Shown: positions 42,452 to 62,167 of the stretch, one piece after another
Layout of the letters: every line of letters begins with the position of its first letter
Numbering within the stretch: the first letter of the stretch is position 1
Assembly (NCBI GenBank): GCA_937934745.1
Contig: CALGZC010000015.1
Coordinates: forward strand, 61,062-125,061
Direction of reading: 5' to 3'
Source: an uncultured Blastocatellia bacterium
GTDB taxonomy: Bacteria; Acidobacteriota; Blastocatellia; Chloracidobacteriales; Chloracidobacteriaceae
Length of the DNA stretch: 64,000 bases
The notes under the pieces: model-generated
What the model was told of the DNA's origin: nothing
Seen by the model: only the letters and a program-made list of their open reading frames with translations
Databases searched by the model: none
Program-made: the position numbers and the translations under genes

Positions 42452-42895
42452 ATGGTGGGAGGTATGCACCCCACAACAACGCTGGTGGTGGCTGCGGTCT
42501 GCGTGGACGGCCCACACGTCCTTGTGACACAGCGCCTGTCAAGCGGGCGTTTCCCCGACCAGTGGGAATTTCCGGGTGGGAAGCTCCACTGGGGGGAGGT
42601 CCCGGAGGAGGGGCTACGCCGTGAACTGCGCGAAGAACTCGGCGTGGAGATTGAAGTCGGTTGTCCGCTGCACGTCATCCACTACACGCTGGACGCGCAG
42701 CAGGCTGTGGCAGTGGTGTTTTACTGGGCGCGGATTGTCGGCGGCACCCTGACCTTGCGCGAAGTGCAGGCGGCGCGCTGGGTACAGCCGGCTGACATGG
42801 CTGCCCTTCCGATCTTGCCGCCGAATCGTCCGGTAGTCACCCGCCTGTGTCGGTTGGCCGCTCGTCGTGCCGGGCTATGTCCGCAGTTTGATTGA
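42452..42895 (+). CDS. Nudix hydrolase (MutT/NudG-like)
   Basis: WEFPGGK...GE...GLRRELREELG Nudix box. Confidence 0.9.
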   Translation: MVGGMHPTTTLVVAAVCVDGPHVLVTQRLSSGRFPDQWEFPGGKLHWGEVPEEGLRRELREELGVEIEVGCPLHVIHYTLDAQQAVAVVFYWARIVGGTLTLREVQAARWVQPADMAALPILPPNRPVVTRLCRLAARRAGLCPQFD

Positions 42896-42897
42896 AC

Positions 42898-45189
42898 CTA
42901 CACTGGGCGTAGGTAGGGCGGATCGGTTTCCGGCGGGCTGGGCACCTTCCAAAAGCCGCTCGGGTGCGGGCGACCGATGCCCTCGGTCTCAACAACACAG
43001 ACACGGTTGCGGCCGTGTTGCTTCGCGCGGTACAGGGCGCGGTCGGCCAGTTCAAGAAGTTGCTTGGGGTCGTTCGTGTCAGAAGGCAGCCCTGCCACAC
43101 CGAGACTGATGGTTAGGCGGCCACCTGGTTGTGATTCGCGTCCGGCAAACGGATACTCCGAAACACGCCGGCGCAATCGCTCGGCTAACATCGCCGCCTG
43201 GGTCTTGGGCGTGTTGGGCAACAGGATGACAAATTCTTCTCCTCCGTACCGCGCAAGGAGGTCGCTGCGTCGAAAACAGCGTTCCATCAGCCGTGCCAGG
43301 TCCTTCAACAACTCATTCCCAGCTTCGTGTCCATTGGTGTCATTGAAGTGTTTGAACCAATCCACATCGAGCATAATCAGTGATAACGGTTGACCACTGC
43401 GTTCGGCCGCCTCGGCTTGCCGCAACAGCTTTTCGGCAAAGTAAGCATGGTTGAAAAGCCCGGTCAGTCCGTCGGTAATGGCGCGGTGCTTAGCGCTGTG
43501 GTAGGCGCGTAGCATGGCCTCAAGCTCACGTTTCTGGGCAATGAGCGATTTAACCCGCATGATGAGTTCCTTGCGGTTGACCGGTTTGATCAGAACATCT
43601 GTCGCCCCGACTTCGAGACCGTGCAGTTTTTCCGTTGTCTCCGGCGAAGTGGTCAGCATCAGGACGGGCAGATGCCGTGTTGCCTCCGTTTGCTTGATGA
43701 GCCGACATAGCTCGTAGCCGTCTGCCAGCGGAAGCTCCGCGTCAATCAGGACGACATCGGGGAGTCGGGTTGCTGACTCAAAGTAGTTGGCATGCAGCAT
43801 GGCTGCGGTTTCATTCCCTGACGCCACAATGAGTTGTGGCCGGAGGTTTTCACTTTCCAGAATTGTGCGTAATAAGCGTCCACTCTCGATGCCGGCGTCA
43901 ATGATGACCACCTGGGGCGCCTCGTCCGGTAGCGATGTGGTGCGATGTGGCAACCGAAAGGTGAGCTGACAGCCGCGCGTTGTATCGCCGTCAACCGTGA
44001 GCGTCGTGCCGTGGAGTTGCAAGATGCGGTGCGTGACATTCAGGCCAAGTGCAACGCCGCGCACCGGCATGCCGCCGGGTGCGTTGGTGTGAATCAATCC
44101 CCGGTAGGTAGCCAGACGTTGCTCGGCGACAATACCGGTCAAATTGTCCTGAAGTGTTATGACTAGGTACTGCACGTTGCTCGATGAACGGTGCAGCTCT
44201 CCGGTGAGCCGAATAACTCCGCCACGCGGAATGTGGCGCAGGGCGTCATCGAGCAACTGGGAGAGGGCTTCGTAGAGCCGCAGCTCGTCGCCGACGAGCA
44301 TTTCGCAGGCTGGGTCAAGCGTGATTTCCAACGTGATCTGCCGCCGCTGTGCCATCGGGGCAAAGGCTGACTGGAGCGACTGGAACAGCCGTGCCGCCGA
44401 AAATTCCCGGACATCAAGAACATCGCCACCGCGTTCAAGGCGCACTAAACGCATGAGGTCATCCACAATGTGCAGCAGGGCCTGGCCGCCGGCTTCAATG
44501 TGGTGCACAAACTCACGCTGCGCATCGGTCAGCGTGCCAAAAGCAGCGTCCTGAAGCATTTCACAGTAGCCAAGCACCGTCGTCAGGGGCGCACGTAGTT
44601 CGTAGTCAACGTTGGCGATGAACTTCTCCCGGTCGCAGATTGCCTGTTCTCCTAGTTCGGTTAGGCGCTCCACGGCGTGGCGGGTCACCTCTAGTTGACG
44701 TCCGAGGTCGGCAAGCTGGCTTTCTGCCTCGGCAAGGCGCACACACCAACCACCTTCACGCAGTAAAAATGCCCAGCTCAGTTCGTGGCCCTGGAGAGCG
44801 TTATCCAGGGCCGCTGCCTCTGCGTGTTCAACCAACACCACGCCACACAGCAGATTGTTGAACGTGAGCCGGCGGATGAGCAGCCCCGGACTGTTCTGAG
44901 CTGCGAAGGGAAAGTCCGGCAGCGTGTGGCGTGGCGTAACGACCAAATGGTCATCCTCAAGCCGGGCCGCTCGTTCGGTGAGCACGGCCTCCATTGCCTC
45001 ACGGGCAAGGTCCGTGTATCCGACTGCGGCCAGAAGCCGAAATTGCTCATCGTCAAAGAAAGCAACCGCTGACGGGGCATCCCCTAACCGGCGGTAGAGA
45101 CCGACCACCACCTGCTGAAGTTGGTGCATCAGTTCCGGTGTCAACGCCTTAGAAACCCACACCTGTGACGACACGACGTATACCCCCAC
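42898..45189 (-). CDS. GAF-like / degenerate HisKA-HATPase / REC / GGDEF protein
   Basis: H-box ANVDYELRAPL (His to Tyr), degenerate N/G boxes, REC with DVVLID and KP, RxxD I-site, RYGGEEF; alternative ATG at 45129. Confidence 0.9.
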   Translation of the reverse strand: MGVYVVSSQVWVSKALTPELMHQLQQVVVGLYRRLGDAPSAVAFFDDEQFRLLAAVGYTDLAREAMEAVLTERAARLEDDHLVVTPRHTLPDFPFAAQNSPGLLIRRLTFNNLLCGVVLVEHAEAAALDNALQGHELSWAFLLREGGWCVRLAEAESQLADLGRQLEVTRHAVERLTELGEQAICDREKFIANVDYELRAPLTTVLGYCEMLQDAAFGTLTDAQREFVHHIEAGGQALLHIVDDLMRLVRLERGGDVLDVREFSAARLFQSLQSAFAPMAQRRQITLEITLDPACEMLVGDELRLYEALSQLLDDALRHIPRGGVIRLTGELHRSSSNVQYLVITLQDNLTGIVAEQRLATYRGLIHTNAPGGMPVRGVALGLNVTHRILQLHGTTLTVDGDTTRGCQLTFRLPHRTTSLPDEAPQVVIIDAGIESGRLLRTILESENLRPQLIVASGNETAAMLHANYFESATRLPDVVLIDAELPLADGYELCRLIKQTEATRHLPVLMLTTSPETTEKLHGLEVGATDVLIKPVNRKELIMRVKSLIAQKRELEAMLRAYHSAKHRAITDGLTGLFNHAYFAEKLLRQAEAAERSGQPLSLIMLDVDWFKHFNDTNGHEAGNELLKDLARLMERCFRRSDLLARYGGEEFVILLPNTPKTQAAMLAERLRRRVSEYPFAGRESQPGGRLTISLGVAGLPSDTNDPKQLLELADRALYRAKQHGRNRVCVVETEGIGRPHPSGFWKVPSPPETDPPYLRPV

Positions 45190-45225: not shown

Positions 45226-46353
45226 TTACGTCAGCTTAGGCTGCCCTGTTGGGCAGCAGGTTGTTGTCGGTCCGGCAGTGGCAGCAAGCATGCCGCACGC
45301 CGCAAAAATATCACGTCCGCGCGGCCGCCGAAGGTAAGTCGGCACGCCTTTAGCTCGTAACACCGCCTGGAAATGTGCAATGCGCTCGGGTGGGGATGGA
45401 CGGAAGGGAATGCCCGGCGCAGGATTGTATGGAATGAGGTTAATTTTGGCGGCGTTACGGGCGCGCAGCGGTGACAGCCAGCGGAGCAACGCGCGTGCGT
45501 CAGCCTCGCTGTCGTTAATGCCGTCCAGCAGGACATACTCAAACGTGATGTACTCTCCGGAGTGGCGCGGAAACGCCAAACACGCTTGTTGTAAAGCCGC
45601 CAGTGGGTAGGTGAGATTGACCGGCATGAGCCGGTTGCGCAGGGCATCGGTTGCGGCCGTCAGGGAAACCGCCAGGTGCGGGCGATCCGTCTCGCGTCCC
45701 AAGGCAATGATCTTCGGCACAATGCCAACGGTGGAAAGCGTGACCCGGCGGGGGACGATGTGCAGCCCGAATGGATCGGCCATGACGCGGAGCGCTTGCA
45801 TAACGTGGCTGTAGTTGAGTAGCGGTTCTCCCATCCCCATGAGAACTACGTTGACGTTCGCCGATTGCGCCGGCCCGGGACGCCGCCCGGTATCACGTAG
45901 CACATACAGCACCTGCGCCACGATCTCCCCGGCCGTCAGGTTTCGTTGCAACCCGAGCGTCGCCGTCGCACAAAACGCACACCCCATCGGACATCCGGCC
46001 TGGGACGAAAGACACAGCGTGACCCGCCGGCCGTCGGGAATCCAGACGGTTTCAACTGCGTGTCCACCGCGCACGGTGAACAAGTAACGCCGTGTTCCGT
46101 CCGCGGCCTCAAAAACCTGCACCGGGCGCAACGGCTCCAGATCGGCTTCGGCGGCCAGCGCCGTCCGCACCCCCTGCGGCAATTCGTGGATGGCTTCGAC
46201 CGACGTGACAAACCGCCGGTGTAGGGCCTGAAAAATCTGGCGTCCACGGTAGGCCGGCAGTCCAAACCCGGCAATATATGCACCGAATTGCTGGCTGGTG
46301 AGCCCGAGCCACTCAACACGCGACACGGTTTCTGGGGCGATTGGCATGCTCAC
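45226..46353 (-). CDS. rlmN: dual-specificity rRNA/tRNA C2 methyltransferase RlmN
   Basis: CLSSQAGCPMGCAFCAT, MGMGEP, STVG, NLIPYN and DIFAACG. Confidence 0.95.
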   Translation of the reverse strand: MSMPIAPETVSRVEWLGLTSQQFGAYIAGFGLPAYRGRQIFQALHRRFVTSVEAIHELPQGVRTALAAEADLEPLRPVQVFEAADGTRRYLFTVRGGHAVETVWIPDGRRVTLCLSSQAGCPMGCAFCATATLGLQRNLTAGEIVAQVLYVLRDTGRRPGPAQSANVNVVLMGMGEPLLNYSHVMQALRVMADPFGLHIVPRRVTLSTVGIVPKIIALGRETDRPHLAVSLTAATDALRNRLMPVNLTYPLAALQQACLAFPRHSGEYITFEYVLLDGINDSEADARALLRWLSPLRARNAAKINLIPYNPAPGIPFRPSPPERIAHFQAVLRAKGVPTYLRRPRGRDIFAACGMLAATAGPTTTCCPTGQPKLT

Positions 46354-46674: not shown

Positions 46675-49662
46675 ATGAAACGCGCACGGGTACGTCACGG
46701 CGTCGGCGCAGCGCTTGCAGAGGAGCATTCACCGCTGGTGCACCTCGTGGACGACGATTATTTCCTGCGCCGCATGATGGTCAAGCTTCTGGAACATGAG
46801 GGACTGCGCGTTGTCGATCACGAGGACGGCCGTCGGGCGCTGGAGGCTGCCCCAACAATGCAGCCGGATTTGGTGTTGCTCGACATCAGTATGCCCGGTA
46901 TGGACGGCATCAGCCTATGCAGCCATTTACGGCAGCTTGAAGCCTATCGGTACGTGCCGATTGTGATGCTGACCGGGATCACGGATGACGAGGCGGTGGC
47001 GTCCGCGTTTGCTGCCGGTGCAACCGACTACCTCCCTAAGCCAACACCGCCGGTTGTACTCAAGCATAAAGTGCAGCATTTCATCCAGTCCTACCGTGCC
47101 GAGCAGCAACGACGTATCGCCGAAGAACGGTTGCATTCGGTCATACAGTATGCCAGCGATGCCATTCTGTTGCTGGATAGCACCTGGCATATTATCGAGT
47201 TGAATCCGATTGCAGAAACTCGCTTTGGTCTCGCAGTTGGACAACAGATTGAGGAACTGCTGGATGTCGGGCGTCTGCTGAGCGTGGTGTTACCGCACCT
47301 GACCCAGACCGGGCGCACTGTTGAGGCGTCCCTTAGAACCCCCCAGGGCAAGCAATTGGCGGTTGAGCTAACCGGCAGTGCCTTCCAAGGAGGCGCACAG
47401 TGGTACTACACCCTGCTGTTGCGCGATATTAGCGAGCGCAAGCAAGCGGAACTTGCCCTACGAACTTCCAATCAGCTTTTGACTTCGGTTCTGGACGCCG
47501 TTGCGGAAGAGATTGCGTTACTCGATGCAAACGGCACCGTTCTGATGGTCAATGAGGCCTGGCGCAAATTTGCCGCAGCTAACGGTATGCCGGCGACTCA
47601 GGCAGGTGGCGTTGGTCTCAATTATCTGCGGCTGTGCGAGCAGGCCGACCCAGAACAATATCCAGAAGCGCAAGCAATTGGTGCAGCGATCCGTGCGGTC
47701 ATCGCAGGACAAAGGCAGCAGTTCAGTATCGAGTATCCCTGTCATGCGCCTGACGAGCGACATTGGTTTGTTGCCCAGGTAACGGCCGTCAACGGGATGT
47801 CACCGGCGCGCGTCCTGGTCAGTCACCGCAACGTGACAGCACAGCATGTGCTCGAAGAGACGCTGGCAACGGCAAACGAGCCCTTTGCGCTGGAATCCGT
47901 TCTCGACATACTGCCCTATGGTGTCGCGCTGCTCAGCCGCCGTGGACGCATCAAAATCACCAATAAACATTTGCTGAACCTGCTCGATGAATCGTCCCTG
48001 GAGAAACGTGGCCGCTGCGGCAAACGCTATCTGAGCCGCCTGGGGTGGCAGCAGTTCAAGCAGGCTTTCCGTGCAAGCCTGACTAACCGGCACGCACCCG
48101 ACCAGCCGCCGGGGGTCGTCCTGCGACAGAAAGTGATGTTGTGCAAACGAGACGGCTGTTTTCTCCCGGCCCTGCTGTCGCTTTTCCCTCTTGAGTCAGA
48201 CCGGGGATGGCTGGCGCTGGTCGAGGACCTTTCGCAGCAGCAGGCCTTTGATGAAATCTTGCGCCGTCATGATGAAGAGTGGGTAGCCACGGTGGATGCC
48301 CTGCCCGATCTCGTGCTGTTAGAGGGCACGGACGGTAAGGTTCGGCGCTGCAATCGCGCCGTGGCCAACTTTCTCAAGCGGCCCTTCCCGGCCATTATTG
48401 GGCAGTTTTCGTCCCGGTTGTTCTTTGGGCACGGCGAAGGTTCGCTGCTGAGCCTGATCCAAAACGCTACCGAATTTCAGTTCCCTAACGATCACCGTTG
48501 GTTTCGAATTCGAAGCTACTGGATTGCGCAGGAACGCGGCATCGGCACAGGTTGGGTTCACATCCTGAGTGACATTACCACGAGCCGGCGCGTTGAGCAG
48601 GACATCCACCGGCTGGTGGCAGCGATTGAACAGGTCGGCGAAGGGGTCGTGACGCTTGACCGCCGTGGCCGGGTGGAATTTTGCAATCCGGCCTTTGAAC
48701 AAATAACCGGTTTGCGAAGTTGGGAGGCGATTGGACGGCCTGTCACCCGCCTCGGCATCGGCCCGGTTGACGCGGCCGTCCGCCGGGAAATCATCGCCTG
48801 CCTGGCGCAGGGGAAAGGTTGGCAGGGACACTACGTCGCACGCCGCCGTGACGGCACAACCTATCGGGAACAGGCCACGGTGTCGCCCGTCCGCGATGCA
48901 CACGGCGTCCTGCAGAATGTCGTCGTCGTCTTCCGCGACATCACGGAGCAGTTGCGGTACGAAGCGATTGCCGAAGCCGTCAATGTGACGGAAAACGCGG
49001 GCTACATTTTTTCGGCCATTCGCCACGAGATGGGTAACCCGATTAACTCGATCAAAACAGCGCTGACCGTGCTGCGGCAGACCGAGCAGCCATTGCCGGA
49101 GACGGTGCAGGCGTACCTTGATCGGTGTCTTTCAGAAATTGGACGTGTTGAGTATTTGCTGCGCACCTTGCGGTCCTTTAGCCTGAATGAAACCCCTGAA
49201 CTTAAGGTGCAGCCCCTCGCTCCTTTTCTGGAGCGTTTCTGCAAGCTTGTTCAGGACGGACTTGCTGGCCAGCAGATAACGCTGCGGCTCATTCTGGAAC
49301 CAGACATCGGGTTGGCTCGCTTTGACGAGCGGGCGCTGCATCAGGTGCTGATGAATTTGGTCTCCAACGCCGTTGATGCCATGGCCGGTACTTCGGGGAC
49401 GGACCTCACCATCATTGCCAAGCGGTATCGGCATTTGGTCGTGATTGTCGTTCGTGACCGTGGATGTGGGCTGAATCCTGAGCAGACGAATCATCTCTTC
49501 AAGCCTTTTTACACCTCTAAGCCGCACGGCACAGGTTTAGGGCTGGTGATTACTCAGAAACTGCTCTCGAAAATGAATGGGACGGTGGAGTTGCATCCGT
49601 TGGCCGAGGGAGGTTGTGAGGCCGTTGTTACGCTTGAGTCTGGCGAGGCTAATGAACTATGA
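46675..49662 (+). CDS. REC / multi-PAS sensor histidine kinase
   Basis: REC (VDDD, LLDISMP, PKP); several PAS/PAC repeats; H-box RHEMGNP, N-box NLVSNA, DRGCG, PFYTSK and GTGLGL all intact. Confidence 0.93.
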   Translation: MKRARVRHGVGAALAEEHSPLVHLVDDDYFLRRMMVKLLEHEGLRVVDHEDGRRALEAAPTMQPDLVLLDISMPGMDGISLCSHLRQLEAYRYVPIVMLTGITDDEAVASAFAAGATDYLPKPTPPVVLKHKVQHFIQSYRAEQQRRIAEERLHSVIQYASDAILLLDSTWHIIELNPIAETRFGLAVGQQIEELLDVGRLLSVVLPHLTQTGRTVEASLRTPQGKQLAVELTGSAFQGGAQWYYTLLLRDISERKQAELALRTSNQLLTSVLDAVAEEIALLDANGTVLMVNEAWRKFAAANGMPATQAGGVGLNYLRLCEQADPEQYPEAQAIGAAIRAVIAGQRQQFSIEYPCHAPDERHWFVAQVTAVNGMSPARVLVSHRNVTAQHVLEETLATANEPFALESVLDILPYGVALLSRRGRIKITNKHLLNLLDESSLEKRGRCGKRYLSRLGWQQFKQAFRASLTNRHAPDQPPGVVLRQKVMLCKRDGCFLPALLSLFPLESDRGWLALVEDLSQQQAFDEILRRHDEEWVATVDALPDLVLLEGTDGKVRRCNRAVANFLKRPFPAIIGQFSSRLFFGHGEGSLLSLIQNATEFQFPNDHRWFRIRSYWIAQERGIGTGWVHILSDITTSRRVEQDIHRLVAAIEQVGEGVVTLDRRGRVEFCNPAFEQITGLRSWEAIGRPVTRLGIGPVDAAVRREIIACLAQGKGWQGHYVARRRDGTTYREQATVSPVRDAHGVLQNVVVVFRDITEQLRYEAIAEAVNVTENAGYIFSAIRHEMGNPINSIKTALTVLRQTEQPLPETVQAYLDRCLSEIGRVEYLLRTLRSFSLNETPELKVQPLAPFLERFCKLVQDGLAGQQITLRLILEPDIGLARFDERALHQVLMNLVSNAVDAMAGTSGTDLTIIAKRYRHLVVIVVRDRGCGLNPEQTNHLFKPFYTSKPHGTGLGLVITQKLLSKMNGTVELHPLAEGGCEAVVTLESGEANEL

Positions 49663-60730: not shown

Positions 60731-62167
60731 TCATTCGCCGGTCAGCTCGGCCTCTGTCAGCTTGAGCGCCGCCTGCGCCTCCGGTGACAGGAGGACGACG
60801 GCCACGTGCGGCTGCCCGATGATGTATGTGCGTAGATAGCGCTGAATGTCCGCCCGCGAGGTCCGGCGCAGCGTCGGCAGATACCCGCGGAAATACTCCA
60901 GCCCCGTCGAAGCCCACCAGAAGCTCAGCGAGTGGATGTGCTCGCTGACTTTTTCGCGCGAAAATAAATCATCGGCTTCAAGCAGGGTTTTGGCAATGGC
61001 CAGCTCTTCATCGGTGAAGTAGTCGGCGTCGGCAAAGCGTGCAATCTCGGCATAGACGGCCTTGAGCGCGGCGCGCACTTTTTCCGGCGTGGTCTGGAAG
61101 GTCAGCGTAATCGGCCCGACGTTGCGCTGGGTGAGGTACATCAAATCCACCCCCGTCGTCAGCCCGCTGTCCGCGAGCGCGCGCTGAAAGCGCGAGTTCG
61201 GCTGCCGCAGGATGAACGAAAAGACATCCGCCGCGTAGGTCGCGGCGTTGTCCTTGCCAATCGAGGGGCCGTGCCAGCCGATCTGTACCGTCACCGTCTG
61301 GACCGGCTGGACGACCACGCCCCCTTCGCTTCTCGCCAGCGGCGGGTGCTCGACCAGCGGATGTTGCTCGAACGGGTCGTCGCCGCGCGGCCAGTCGCCG
61401 AAATACTTGGCCACAAGACGAAACGCCTCTTCGGGCCGAACGTCGCCGGCGACCAGCACCGCCGCGTTGTTGGGAATGTAGTAGCGCCGCTGGATCAGCC
61501 GCATCTGGTCGGTTGTGGCATTGGCAACGGTGGCGCGCGTCCCCAGCGGGTTTTTGCGGCTCGTGTACTTGGCGAACAACCGCCGCGTCATCTCCGTCGA
61601 GAGGTAGTAGTACGGGTTGGACTCGTTGCGGTCAATCTCGCCCAGCACGACTTCTTTCTCGCGCGCAAACTCCTCTTCGTCAAAGGCCGGATACAGCGCC
61701 GCGTCGCGCATGAAACGCAGCGCCGTCGGCAGGTGGCGGCTCAGCGTTGTGAAGTAGTAGTTGACCAGCTCCGTCTGCGTCGCGCCGTTGTAGATGATGC
61801 CCAGTTCGCCAATCGCGCGGAGGTATTCCTCCTGATTTTTTACGGCGCGGTTGGCCTTGAAAAACATGTGCTCGTAAAGATGCGACAGGCCGTTGAGTTC
61901 GGGCGGCTCGGTGTAGGCGCCGTTCCGACACGCCAGCTCAATCGTCACCAGCGGCACGGCATGGTCTTCATACACGATGACTTCCAGCCCGTTGGCGAGG
62001 CGACGGTTGAAAAGCTGGGCGTAGTCGGTCGGCGCGCGCCCGTCATCCGGTTGCATGCGCGCCGGCTTGGGCTTCTGAAGGGCCCGGGAAGCCGCGCCCG
62101 GCGGTAGCGCCCAGCTCGGCGCGGACAGCCAGAGCCAAAGCGACAAGACAACAAGCCAAAAACGCAT
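60731..62167 (-). CDS. M16 (pitrilysin-like) zinc peptidase, exported
   Basis: HxxEH (HLYEH), NGAT, EKEVVLGE; signal peptide from ATG 62167. Confidence 0.92.
   Translation of the reverse strand: MRFWLVVLSLWLWLSAPSWALPPGAASRALQKPKPARMQPDDGRAPTDYAQLFNRRLANGLEVIVYEDHAVPLVTIELACRNGAYTEPPELNGLSHLYEHMFFKANRAVKNQEEYLRAIGELGIIYNGATQTELVNYYFTTLSRHLPTALRFMRDAALYPAFDEEEFAREKEVVLGEIDRNESNPYYYLSTEMTRRLFAKYTSRKNPLGTRATVANATTDQMRLIQRRYYIPNNAAVLVAGDVRPEEAFRLVAKYFGDWPRGDDPFEQHPLVEHPPLARSEGGVVVQPVQTVTVQIGWHGPSIGKDNAATYAADVFSFILRQPNSRFQRALADSGLTTGVDLMYLTQRNVGPITLTFQTTPEKVRAALKAVYAEIARFADADYFTDEELAIAKTLLEADDLFSREKVSEHIHSLSFWWASTGLEYFRGYLPTLRRTSRADIQRYLRTYIIGQPHVAVVLLSPEAQAALKLTEAELTGE

Follow-up and report, generated by a model that had tools for sequence, protein, structure and literature searches.

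Locus and domain layout

We looked at a gene for a putative diguanylate cyclase from an uncultured Blastocatellia bacterium of the Chloracidobacteriaceae, in which a kinase core and a receiver that appear to have lost their phosphotransfer chemistry are fused to a GGDEF domain. The gene lies on contig CALGZC010000015.1 of assembly GCA_937934745.1; the stretch analyzed, 64,000 nucleotides long (positions 61,062 to 125,061), is called the window here. Its open reading frame (ORF) is intact and encodes 763 amino acids counted from the first GTG (45189), and its motifs were read after re-translation from the DNA (Table 1). Four domains scored above the Pfam gathering cut-offs, HisKA (residues 187-254), HATPase_c (300-416), Response_reg (427-546), and GGDEF (570-729). 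Among the NCBIfam models, PleD and, second, DgcR matched the C-terminal half best and ordinary sensor kinases the middle, and none came near its equivalog cut-off for the 763-residue protein. The nearest database proteins carry the annotation "diguanylate cyclase [Chloracidobacterium sp.]".

Table 1. Positions in the window of the features of the cyclase gene and of two neighboring genes (aa, amino acids; AF2, AlphaFold2; DHp, dimerization and histidine phosphotransfer domain; CA, catalytic and ATP-binding domain)
Feature	Position	Strand	Remarks
Whole ORF	42898..45189	-	GAF-like / DHp(Tyr) / degenerate CA / pseudo-receiver / GGDEF / conserved C-terminal tail
Probable true start, GTG codon 6	45172..45174	-	VWVSKxLTPEL conserved in L001, L005, P0276
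Predicted GAF-like sensor domain (aa 18-132)	44794..45138	-	AF2 and Foldseek; without Pfam hit
Signaling helix and DHp four-helix-bundle hairpin (aa 148-254)	44428..44748	-	Pfam HisKA 187-254; AF2 helices
Tyr196 codon TAC	44602..44604	-	Tyr in 6/6 family members
CA domain (HATPase_c), nucleotide-binding boxes decayed	43942..44292	-	Pfam; AF2
N-box SQLLDDALRH	44233..44262	-	Gln311 and Asp315 in place of two Asn
G1 box DNLTG	44134..44148	-	adenine-binding Asp348 kept, first Gly lost
G2 box GVALGL	44041..44058	-	middle Gly replaced by Ala
Receiver-fold domain (aa 427-546), classed as pseudo-receiver	43552..43911	-	Pfam; CheY-anchored alignment
Acidic pocket Asp431-Ala432, DD2 non-acidic	43894..43899	-	alignment to CheY
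Asp483 at phospho-acceptor position	43741..43743	-	Asn in P0001
GGDEF domain (aa 570-729), preceded by REC alpha5/linker helix	43003..43482	-	Pfam E 4e-48; PleD E 4e-67
His581, cross-dimer base-stacking position (PleD R300, GacA Y304)	43447..43449	-	PleD alignment
Asn625, base-selectivity position (PleD D344, GacA S348)	43315..43317	-	PleD alignment
I-site RRSD (RxxD), R640-D643	43261..43272	-	PleD alignment
GGEEF active-site motif	43231..43245	-	PleD alignment
C-terminal tail past GGDEF, ends SGFWKV	42943..42990	-	conserved in family alignment
rlmN (radical-SAM rRNA/tRNA methyltransferase)	45226..46353	-	directly upstream, same strand, conserved neighbor
Hybrid sensor, 995 aa	46675-49662	+	N-terminal receiver, C-terminal kinase core, H-box FSAIRHEMGNPINSI

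Six members of the family were gathered. Besides the window protein, they are P0001 (locus L005) from Chloracidobacterium sp., the closest orthologue with 79% identity; the protein of locus L001 from Chloracidobacterium sp. CP2_5A (74%); P0002 (locus L006) from an Acidobacteriota metagenome-assembled genome (MAG; 72%); and two metagenome proteins, P0121 with 47% identity and P0276 at about the same distance from the window protein, which are 48% identical to each other. When 1.84 billion cluster representatives were searched by HMMER with the profile of the family, P0121 was the single full-length match, at 742 bits; the next match had 435 bits, and the family is therefore narrow. Scanning genome contigs for further members added one orthologue, L001. 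The same scan of metagenomes returned ordinary kinases and GGDEF proteins only, and it missed even the contig of P0121 itself.

The kinase core carries a Tyr for His and a worn ATP site

The H-box of the DHp domain reads FIANVDYELRAPL, the phospho-acceptor His being replaced by Tyr196. Re-translation confirmed the TAC codon that an earlier note on this DNA, made from the sequence alone, had placed at 44604-44602; it is one transition away from the His codon CAC. The His is missing in about 0.9% of the HisKA domains surveyed in PMC12632262, and among the top 150 representatives it was kept in 83 of the 87 non-family kinase cores with a residue aligned there. Such rarity, set beside the fixation of Tyr in six diverged lineages, argues that the replacement is not a chance one. 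In HisKA kinases, the E/DxxT/N motif that follows the His is the phosphatase motif, and its residue is lost in all family members, which have YELRA and not HExxT. From general HisKA chemistry, neither kinase nor phosphatase activity would be expected of this core.

The nucleotide-binding boxes, whose sequences agreed with those quoted in the earlier note, are worn as well. For this, the kinase core of the window protein was aligned among 33 histidine kinase (HK) cores, two from family orthologues and 31 from ordinary kinases. We observed that it departs from near-invariant columns at N315 (D), G350 (L), and G380 (A), in addition to the Gln at the first Asn of the N-box; at the columns where it has D315, L350, and A380, at least 90% of the reference kinases carry N, G, and G. 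The note had called all kinase boxes degraded, which holds for these replacements and goes too far for Asp348 of the G1 box, Gly352, and Gly382, still invariant across the 33 cores. A functional HisKA kinase has the phospho-acceptor His and the N, G1, and G2 motifs, and the window protein has neither; its CA domain would probably not bind ATP.

The fold itself is kept according to Pfam, AF2, and Foldseek. AF2 predicted a normal DHp-CA fold with a pLDDT >85 over most of residues 150-420 and of 64-80 at the ATP-lid, including two helices at residues 148-213 and 222-252 (pLDDT >85). When the core was compared with solved kinases by Foldseek, E values ranged from 1e-18 to 1e-12, and the nearest solved relatives, by sequence as well as by fold, were GacS, then DivL and RetS, of which the last two signal with no classical phosphorelay of their own. 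With its fold kept, its catalytic requirements lost, and purifying selection acting on it (see below), the core is classed from these features as a conserved pseudo-histidine kinase, as defined in PMC12632262.

The receiver domain is classed as a pseudo-receiver

For the receivers, all six sequences were placed against E. coli CheY with a hidden Markov model built from 476 receiver domains. In the acidic pocket, the position of CheY D12 (DD1) holds D or E, and that of D13 (DD2), a direct metal ligand, holds A, T, A, A, S, and S. The phospho-acceptor (CheY D57) is Asp in five of the six and Asn (AAC) in P0001, and the active-site Thr (T87) is likewise present in five, with Ile in P0002. All six have Val at the aromatic switch (K-3) and keep the active-site K109-P110. 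The window receiver itself retains Asp483, Thr513, and Lys535-Pro. According to the Bourret-lab survey (PMC12632262), a pseudo-receiver is a receiver fold lacking at least one active-site residue, most often DD2, which is acidic in 100% of true receivers and non-acidic in about 80% of pseudo-receivers. The five active-site residues of a phosphorylatable receiver are not all present here, and by the criteria of that survey the domain is assigned to the pseudo-receivers.

The family has been conserved and preserves the order of the losses

Tyr occupies the His position in all six members and is encoded by TAC or TAT. Among the three genes of the Chloracidobacterium clade, synonymous divergence (dS) was saturated (1.1-3.5) and the nonsynonymous divergence (dN) of the DHp region was only 0.04-0.06; DHp is the slowest-evolving part of the protein, and its helices are identical throughout the clade. 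The dN/dS ratios, which are rough since dS is saturated, were 0.03-0.05 for both DHp and GGDEF, 0.11-0.15 for CA, 0.05-0.15 for the receiver, and 0.10-0.20 for the N-terminal domain. Every domain is under purifying selection. Moreover, the gene for P0276 lies directly downstream of rlmN as the window gene does, and the RlmN encoded beside it is only 62% identical to that of the window, indicating that the Tyr has been held over a deep divergence. That the degenerate core is conserved and not decaying, as implied in the earlier note, is thus borne out by the Tyr in every member, its TAC/TAT variation, and the low DHp ratio. Homologues retaining His or Asn had been named there as a sign of recent decay; His was found in none of them, and the N-box Asn is kept in P0121 and P0276.

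These two proteins are informative on the order of the losses. In P0121, all CA boxes are canonical (N-box LLDNAFKF, G1 DTGIG, G2 GLGVGL), and in P0276, they are intermediate (LLDNAFKF, DTGAS, GLDVGL). The Chloracidobacterium clade has LLDDALR (LMDDALR in P0002) in the N-box, DN(L/T)TG, DDTSG, or DSATG in G1, and G(V/I)ALGL or GIALSL in G2. Since P0121 and P0276 both carry the Tyr, the decay of the CA boxes is younger than the His-to-Tyr change: the Tyr came first, followed by the wearing of the nucleotide site in the Chloracidobacterium clade. The match to ordinary kinases reached an E value of 1e-45 for the P0121 core versus 1e-18 at best for the window core.

Other HK-REC-GGDEF proteins without the His were met in the search of representatives: P0127 has Lys, P0138 and P0174 have Arg, and P0165 has Lys or Arg. 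Of these, P0127 (from a Desulfuromonadaceae MAG) and P0174 are also without the receiver Asp. The theme is therefore not unique to the Tyr family, and pseudo-two-component cyclases of this kind are possibly recurrent. A quick neighbor-joining tree grouped P0127, P0138, and P0174 with the Tyr family; long-branch attraction may explain this grouping and we do not rely on it.

The GGDEF domain belongs to an Asn-type subclass

The GGDEF domain aligned with PleD without gaps. PleD D327, K332, N335, E370, K442, and R446 correspond to D608, K613, N616, E651, K723, and R727 of the window protein, which makes six of the seven PleD catalytic residues, the exception being D344, replaced by Asn625. The GGEEF motif and, five residues ahead of it, the RxxD I-site are in place, as is the receiver Asp, in agreement with the earlier note. 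Its description of the GGDEF domain as intact is right for these motifs and for the six residues, and needs qualifying for Asn625 and His581, which are non-canonical. In PleD, the D344 position reads guanine, and the Hypr GGDEF enzymes, which are cyclic GMP-AMP (cGAMP) synthases, carry Ser there. At the cross-dimer position, whose residue stacks on the base of the partner, 94% of predicted cyclases have the guanine-favoring Arg, and GacA has Tyr304. All six family members have Asn at the first position (GHEAGN) and His at the second (LTGLFNH). Of the features of an active cyclase, the catalytic residues and RxxD are therefore present, and the guanine-reading Asp and the cross-dimer Arg are absent.

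We then tallied Asn and Asp at the selectivity position in the 120 closest GGDEF domains of a 5.8-billion-protein collection. Ninety-one were of the Asp type, with Arg (47) or His (32) as the main cross-dimer residues listed. The remaining 29 were of the Asn type and none of them had the Arg, the residue being F, V, Y, H, or L; the association between the Asn type and the absence of the Arg gave a Fisher P of 4e-8 when relatedness is ignored. Asn-type domains (NDTNGHExGN) with intact GGEEF and RxxD were also detected in cNMP-binding-GGDEF, CBS-GGDEF, and GAF-GGDEF proteins as well as in canonical REC-GGDEF and GGDEF-PilZ architectures (further carriers: L007, L012-L015, L017, L020, L024, L026, L027, L037, L041, P0154, P0245). 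The pairing of Asn625 with His581 marks a wider, uncharacterized Asn-type subclass of GGDEF domains. In the literature, whose Hypr part was covered incompletely, we found no paper testing Asn at this position.

As for the product, the alteration of both specificity determinants together argues for a change, and the fusions to PilZ and the retention of the I-site speak mildly for its still being cyclic di-GMP (c-di-GMP). We put forward only tentatively, and with some doubt, that the Asn type would be a class with changed purine selectivity (for example cGAMP, c-di-AMP, or mixed products), driven in Chloracidobacterium by a fossil two-component module. The Asn-type subclass is a concrete candidate, open to inexpensive tests, for one more product specificity among the enzymes of the GGDEF superfamily.

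The N-terminal domain is predicted to be GAF-like

Over residues 1-165, Pfam gave no domain match at E<=1, the GAF profile included. An AF2 model of residues 6-170, built on five family sequences, showed a helix, two strands, helices, and three strands, followed by a long helix running on into DHp. When this fold was compared with the PDB by Foldseek, the top 50 matches were almost all GAF domains, among them that of Lcd1, with E values of about 1e-4 to 2.5e-3 and TM scores of about 0.5. Comparison by hhalign with an ad hoc GAF alignment, made from the GAF segments of kinase hits, was weak (P=0.015) and in the expected register. A PAS identity was rejected, as hhalign against PAS segments returned nothing. 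The modeled N-terminus is thus assigned a GAF-like fold.

Within this domain, Cys115-Gly116 (44845-44850) is invariant in all six members and lies in a predicted beta-strand, where it may serve as a ligand or redox site.

Gene start, C-terminal tail, and neighboring genes

The gap between the end of the rlmN ORF (45226) and the GTG at 45189 is 36 nt, which is the distance given in the earlier note, and it holds no promoter- or terminator-like site on the minus strand. Because the orthologues conserve VWVSKxLTPEL ahead of their annotated starts, the GTG at codon 6 (45174) rather than that at 45189 is the probable start of translation, in which case the gap would widen to 51 nt. As annotated in the database, P0001 and P0002 seem to lack about 25-30 codons at the start (L005 7869-8060; L001 7929). 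At the other end of the protein, the tail GxP(R/K)xSG(F/Y)W(K/R/Q)V is common to all six members, and we know of no match to it.

The block in which rlmN and the cyclase gene face the NUDIX, prfA, and GT2 genes is conserved. L005 and L006 share with the window the order rlmN, cyclase, NUDIX, prfA, GT2, YdjC, and SpoU-methylase, and L001 agrees with it in ORF layout. The convergent NUDIX gene (42452-42898 region) extends to 42895, which leaves two bases between it and the end of the cyclase ORF at 42898 and no space for separate terminators. Upstream of rlmN, L005 has a SpoIIE phosphatase gene and L006 has unrelated genes; L001 resembles L006 in ORF layout. In the neighborhoods of the orthologous loci, we found no conserved kinase or response regulator. 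The gene for P0121, the most divergent family member, is not beside rlmN: on four independent metagenome contigs (L087-L090), an ABC transporter gene (ABC_membrane and ABC_tran) follows it on the same strand. In the window, the hybrid sensor gene is divergent from rlmN, and its product has a long middle region in which PAS domains would be expected. In the one run with the locus, of uncertain RNA or DNA origin, coverage was low and flat over the contig.

Proposed mechanism and alternatives

Altogether, these results point, with moderate confidence on our part, to a transmission scaffold between the GAF-like domain and the cyclase that would work independently of phosphorylation, the DHp, CA, and receiver domains of a retired hybrid kinase being kept as a structural link. 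The GAF-like domain would sense a ligand or a state. Its C-terminal helix would run straight into DHp, which would hold the protein as a parallel dimer, and a conformational change in DHp would be relayed to the two GGDEF domains via the docked CA domain and pseudo-receiver and then the REC-alpha5/linker helix. This relay would set whether the two GGDEF half-sites face each other productively, and product feedback through the RxxD I-site would limit the output. Phosphorylation of His, Tyr, or Asp would not be needed, and the CA domain and the pseudo-receiver would be kept for packing, with a possible further role as allosteric sites. That the dead core acts as a scaffold or gate, as first suggested in the earlier note, remains the best reading.

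Several points weigh against it. The family members are known from sequences and models alone, the structure models are monomers and silent on dimer geometry, and for the N-terminal domain the best AF2 model (pLDDT 89.2) was the sole confident one of five. The selection figures are only approximate for the reason given above. With Asp at the site of the Mg-binding Asn and the G1 Asp still there, nucleotides could yet be bound, and with a fully canonical CA domain in P0121 the ancestral protein may have used ATP. Finally, since Asp483, the Thr, and the Lys are kept in most members, some residual phosphorylation by acetyl phosphate or a distant kinase is conceivable.

The last point leads to the alternative of a receiver that is a working phospho-acceptor, phosphorylated in trans, for example by the hybrid kinase at 46675-49662, and that activates the cyclase as in PleD, WspR, and DgcR, the kinase core doing no more than dimerizing or gating. 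REC-GGDEF cyclases are classically activated by phosphorylation, and PleD, DgcR, and WspR are the best matches here; Asp483, with Asp at this position in five of six members, Thr513, and Lys535-Pro are present, and the hybrid kinase is 1.5 kb away. However, the metal-binding DD2 Asp is absent and the aromatic residue of Y-T coupling is Val in every member, and the closest orthologue has Asn for the phospho-Asp and another has Ile for the Thr. We also rejected the hybrid kinase as a dedicated partner, as it has no synteny support: it is not beside rlmN in L005 or L006, and L001 has nothing of its length there. We regard this alternative as unlikely, and, given the alignment and the synteny, there is poor support for the statements in the earlier note that phosphorylation of the receiver has to come in trans and that this kinase could be the donor.

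A second alternative is reverse signaling of the DivL type, in which the Tyr-bearing DHp would dock a separate phosphorylated single-domain response regulator and pass the signal to the cyclase or to the GAF-like domain. The position of DivL among the solved relatives, in sequence (E 1e-19) and in fold, and the DHp surface, the most conserved part of the protein, speak for it. However, the receiver-fold domain of the protein itself is expected to fill the docking site on DHp, and the neighborhoods offer no conserved response regulator. DivL, moreover, keeps ExxT (YELRT), where the window family has YELRA, and its N, G1, and G2 boxes are intact; at the N-terminus, a single GAF-like domain stands in place of the membrane anchor and the several PAS domains of DivL. 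We give this alternative little credence.

A re-use of the CA domain or the pseudo-receiver as a site for ATP/ADP or a cyclic dinucleotide, acting as a second allosteric input, would be compatible with the scaffold and is in itself quite improbable. It would fit the purifying selection on CA (dN/dS 0.11-0.15), the retention of Asp348 with a conservative Asn-to-Asp change at the metal site, and the complete ATP-binding boxes of P0121, and a hybrid kinase entry, 6qrj, taken here as ShkA, was met among the solved sequence relatives. Binding of c-di-GMP is known for the CA domain of CckA and the pseudo-receiver of ShkA. Set against this, no specific binding motif was identified in the protein, the ATP lid has lost the G1 and G2 glycines that give it its shape, and the idea is one of analogy. 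Lastly, neutral decay, a pseudogene, or a sequencing artefact, for which nothing but the motif losses themselves speaks, is ruled out for practical purposes by the intact ORF, the Tyr common to six lineages with a synonymous codon change, and the dN/dS ratios, with dS saturated and DHp helices still identical in the clade.

For the scaffold, then, the interest would lie in a whole kinase-receiver pair that lost its chemistry together in one polypeptide and was then conserved over order-level divergence, pseudo-kinases and pseudo-receivers being usually studied singly. The family preserves successive stages, from Tyr with an intact ATP site through a partly decayed to a fully decayed one. It could therefore serve as a natural series for the role of a two-component module once phosphotransfer is gone and for the order in which constraints relax.

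Comparison with known systems

The pseudo-histidine kinase concept reportedly goes back to Collins and Childers. DivL of Caulobacter crescentus (PDB 4Q20) shares with the window protein a HisKA-type DHp domain with Tyr for the phospho-acceptor His, in a nearly identical H-box context (FVGNVSYELRTPLTT versus FIANVDYELRAPLTT), and the structural alignment gave 23% identity. In DivL, there is neither a fused receiver nor an enzymatic output, and the protein, which is alphaproteobacterial, works in trans on DivK and CckA. The window protein, from an acidobacterium, has a pseudo-receiver and a GGDEF domain attached in cis to the module. A conserved, non-catalytic role in signaling is generally accepted for DivL (PMC4211667). 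Orthology was ruled out on account of the other architecture and lineage, the Tyr family forming its own clade, and convergence is the simplest account of the Tyr in the two; the comparison drawn in the earlier note is apt as an analogy. Similarly, RetS of Pseudomonas aeruginosa is a kinase fold that signals by protein contacts and not by its own phosphorelay, as proposed here, and works by heterodimerizing with GacS; unlike the window protein, it has no fused enzymatic output domain. PsmA of Streptomyces is a hybrid-HK-like pseudokinase (PMC12963549).

On the output side, PleD (REC / pseudo-REC / GGDEF) was the best overall match (E 4e-67). The receiver, linker, and GGDEF domain of the window protein align end to end with the second, non-phosphorylatable receiver of PleD, which has Asn at the acceptor position as P0001 does, and its GGDEF domain. 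Both proteins share RxxD, GGEEF, and the six catalytic residues, and they differ in D344 and R300 of PleD versus Asn and His in the family. PleD also has a working phosphorylated first receiver, where the window protein has the pseudo-kinase upstream. In DgcR, WspR, PadC (phytochrome-linked, 5LLW/5LLX), and Lcd1 (GAF-GGDEF), dimeric helical linkers orient the two GGDEF domains; none of them has a complete DHp-CA-REC between sensor and cyclase, as the window protein does.

The Hypr enzymes (GacA, Bd0367, Cabther_A1065) deviate at the selectivity position, and GacA also at the cross-dimer residue, as the window protein does. However, they combine Ser or Thr with an obligatory GGDEF (Asp) motif, whereas the family has Asn (Asn625 in the window protein) with GGEEF, which sets it apart from the Hypr class. 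C. thermophilum encodes one Hypr enzyme, Cabther_A1065, and has a c-di-GMP-binding PilB. Identity with Cabther_A1065 was ruled out, since that enzyme is of the Ser/Thr class and has Arg at the cross-dimer site versus His here, and is thus a different gene. Altogether, the window protein is a new combination of known kinds, a DivL-like putative pseudokinase and a PleD-like putative pseudo-receiver in a sensor-helix-GGDEF arrangement like that of DgcR or PadC.

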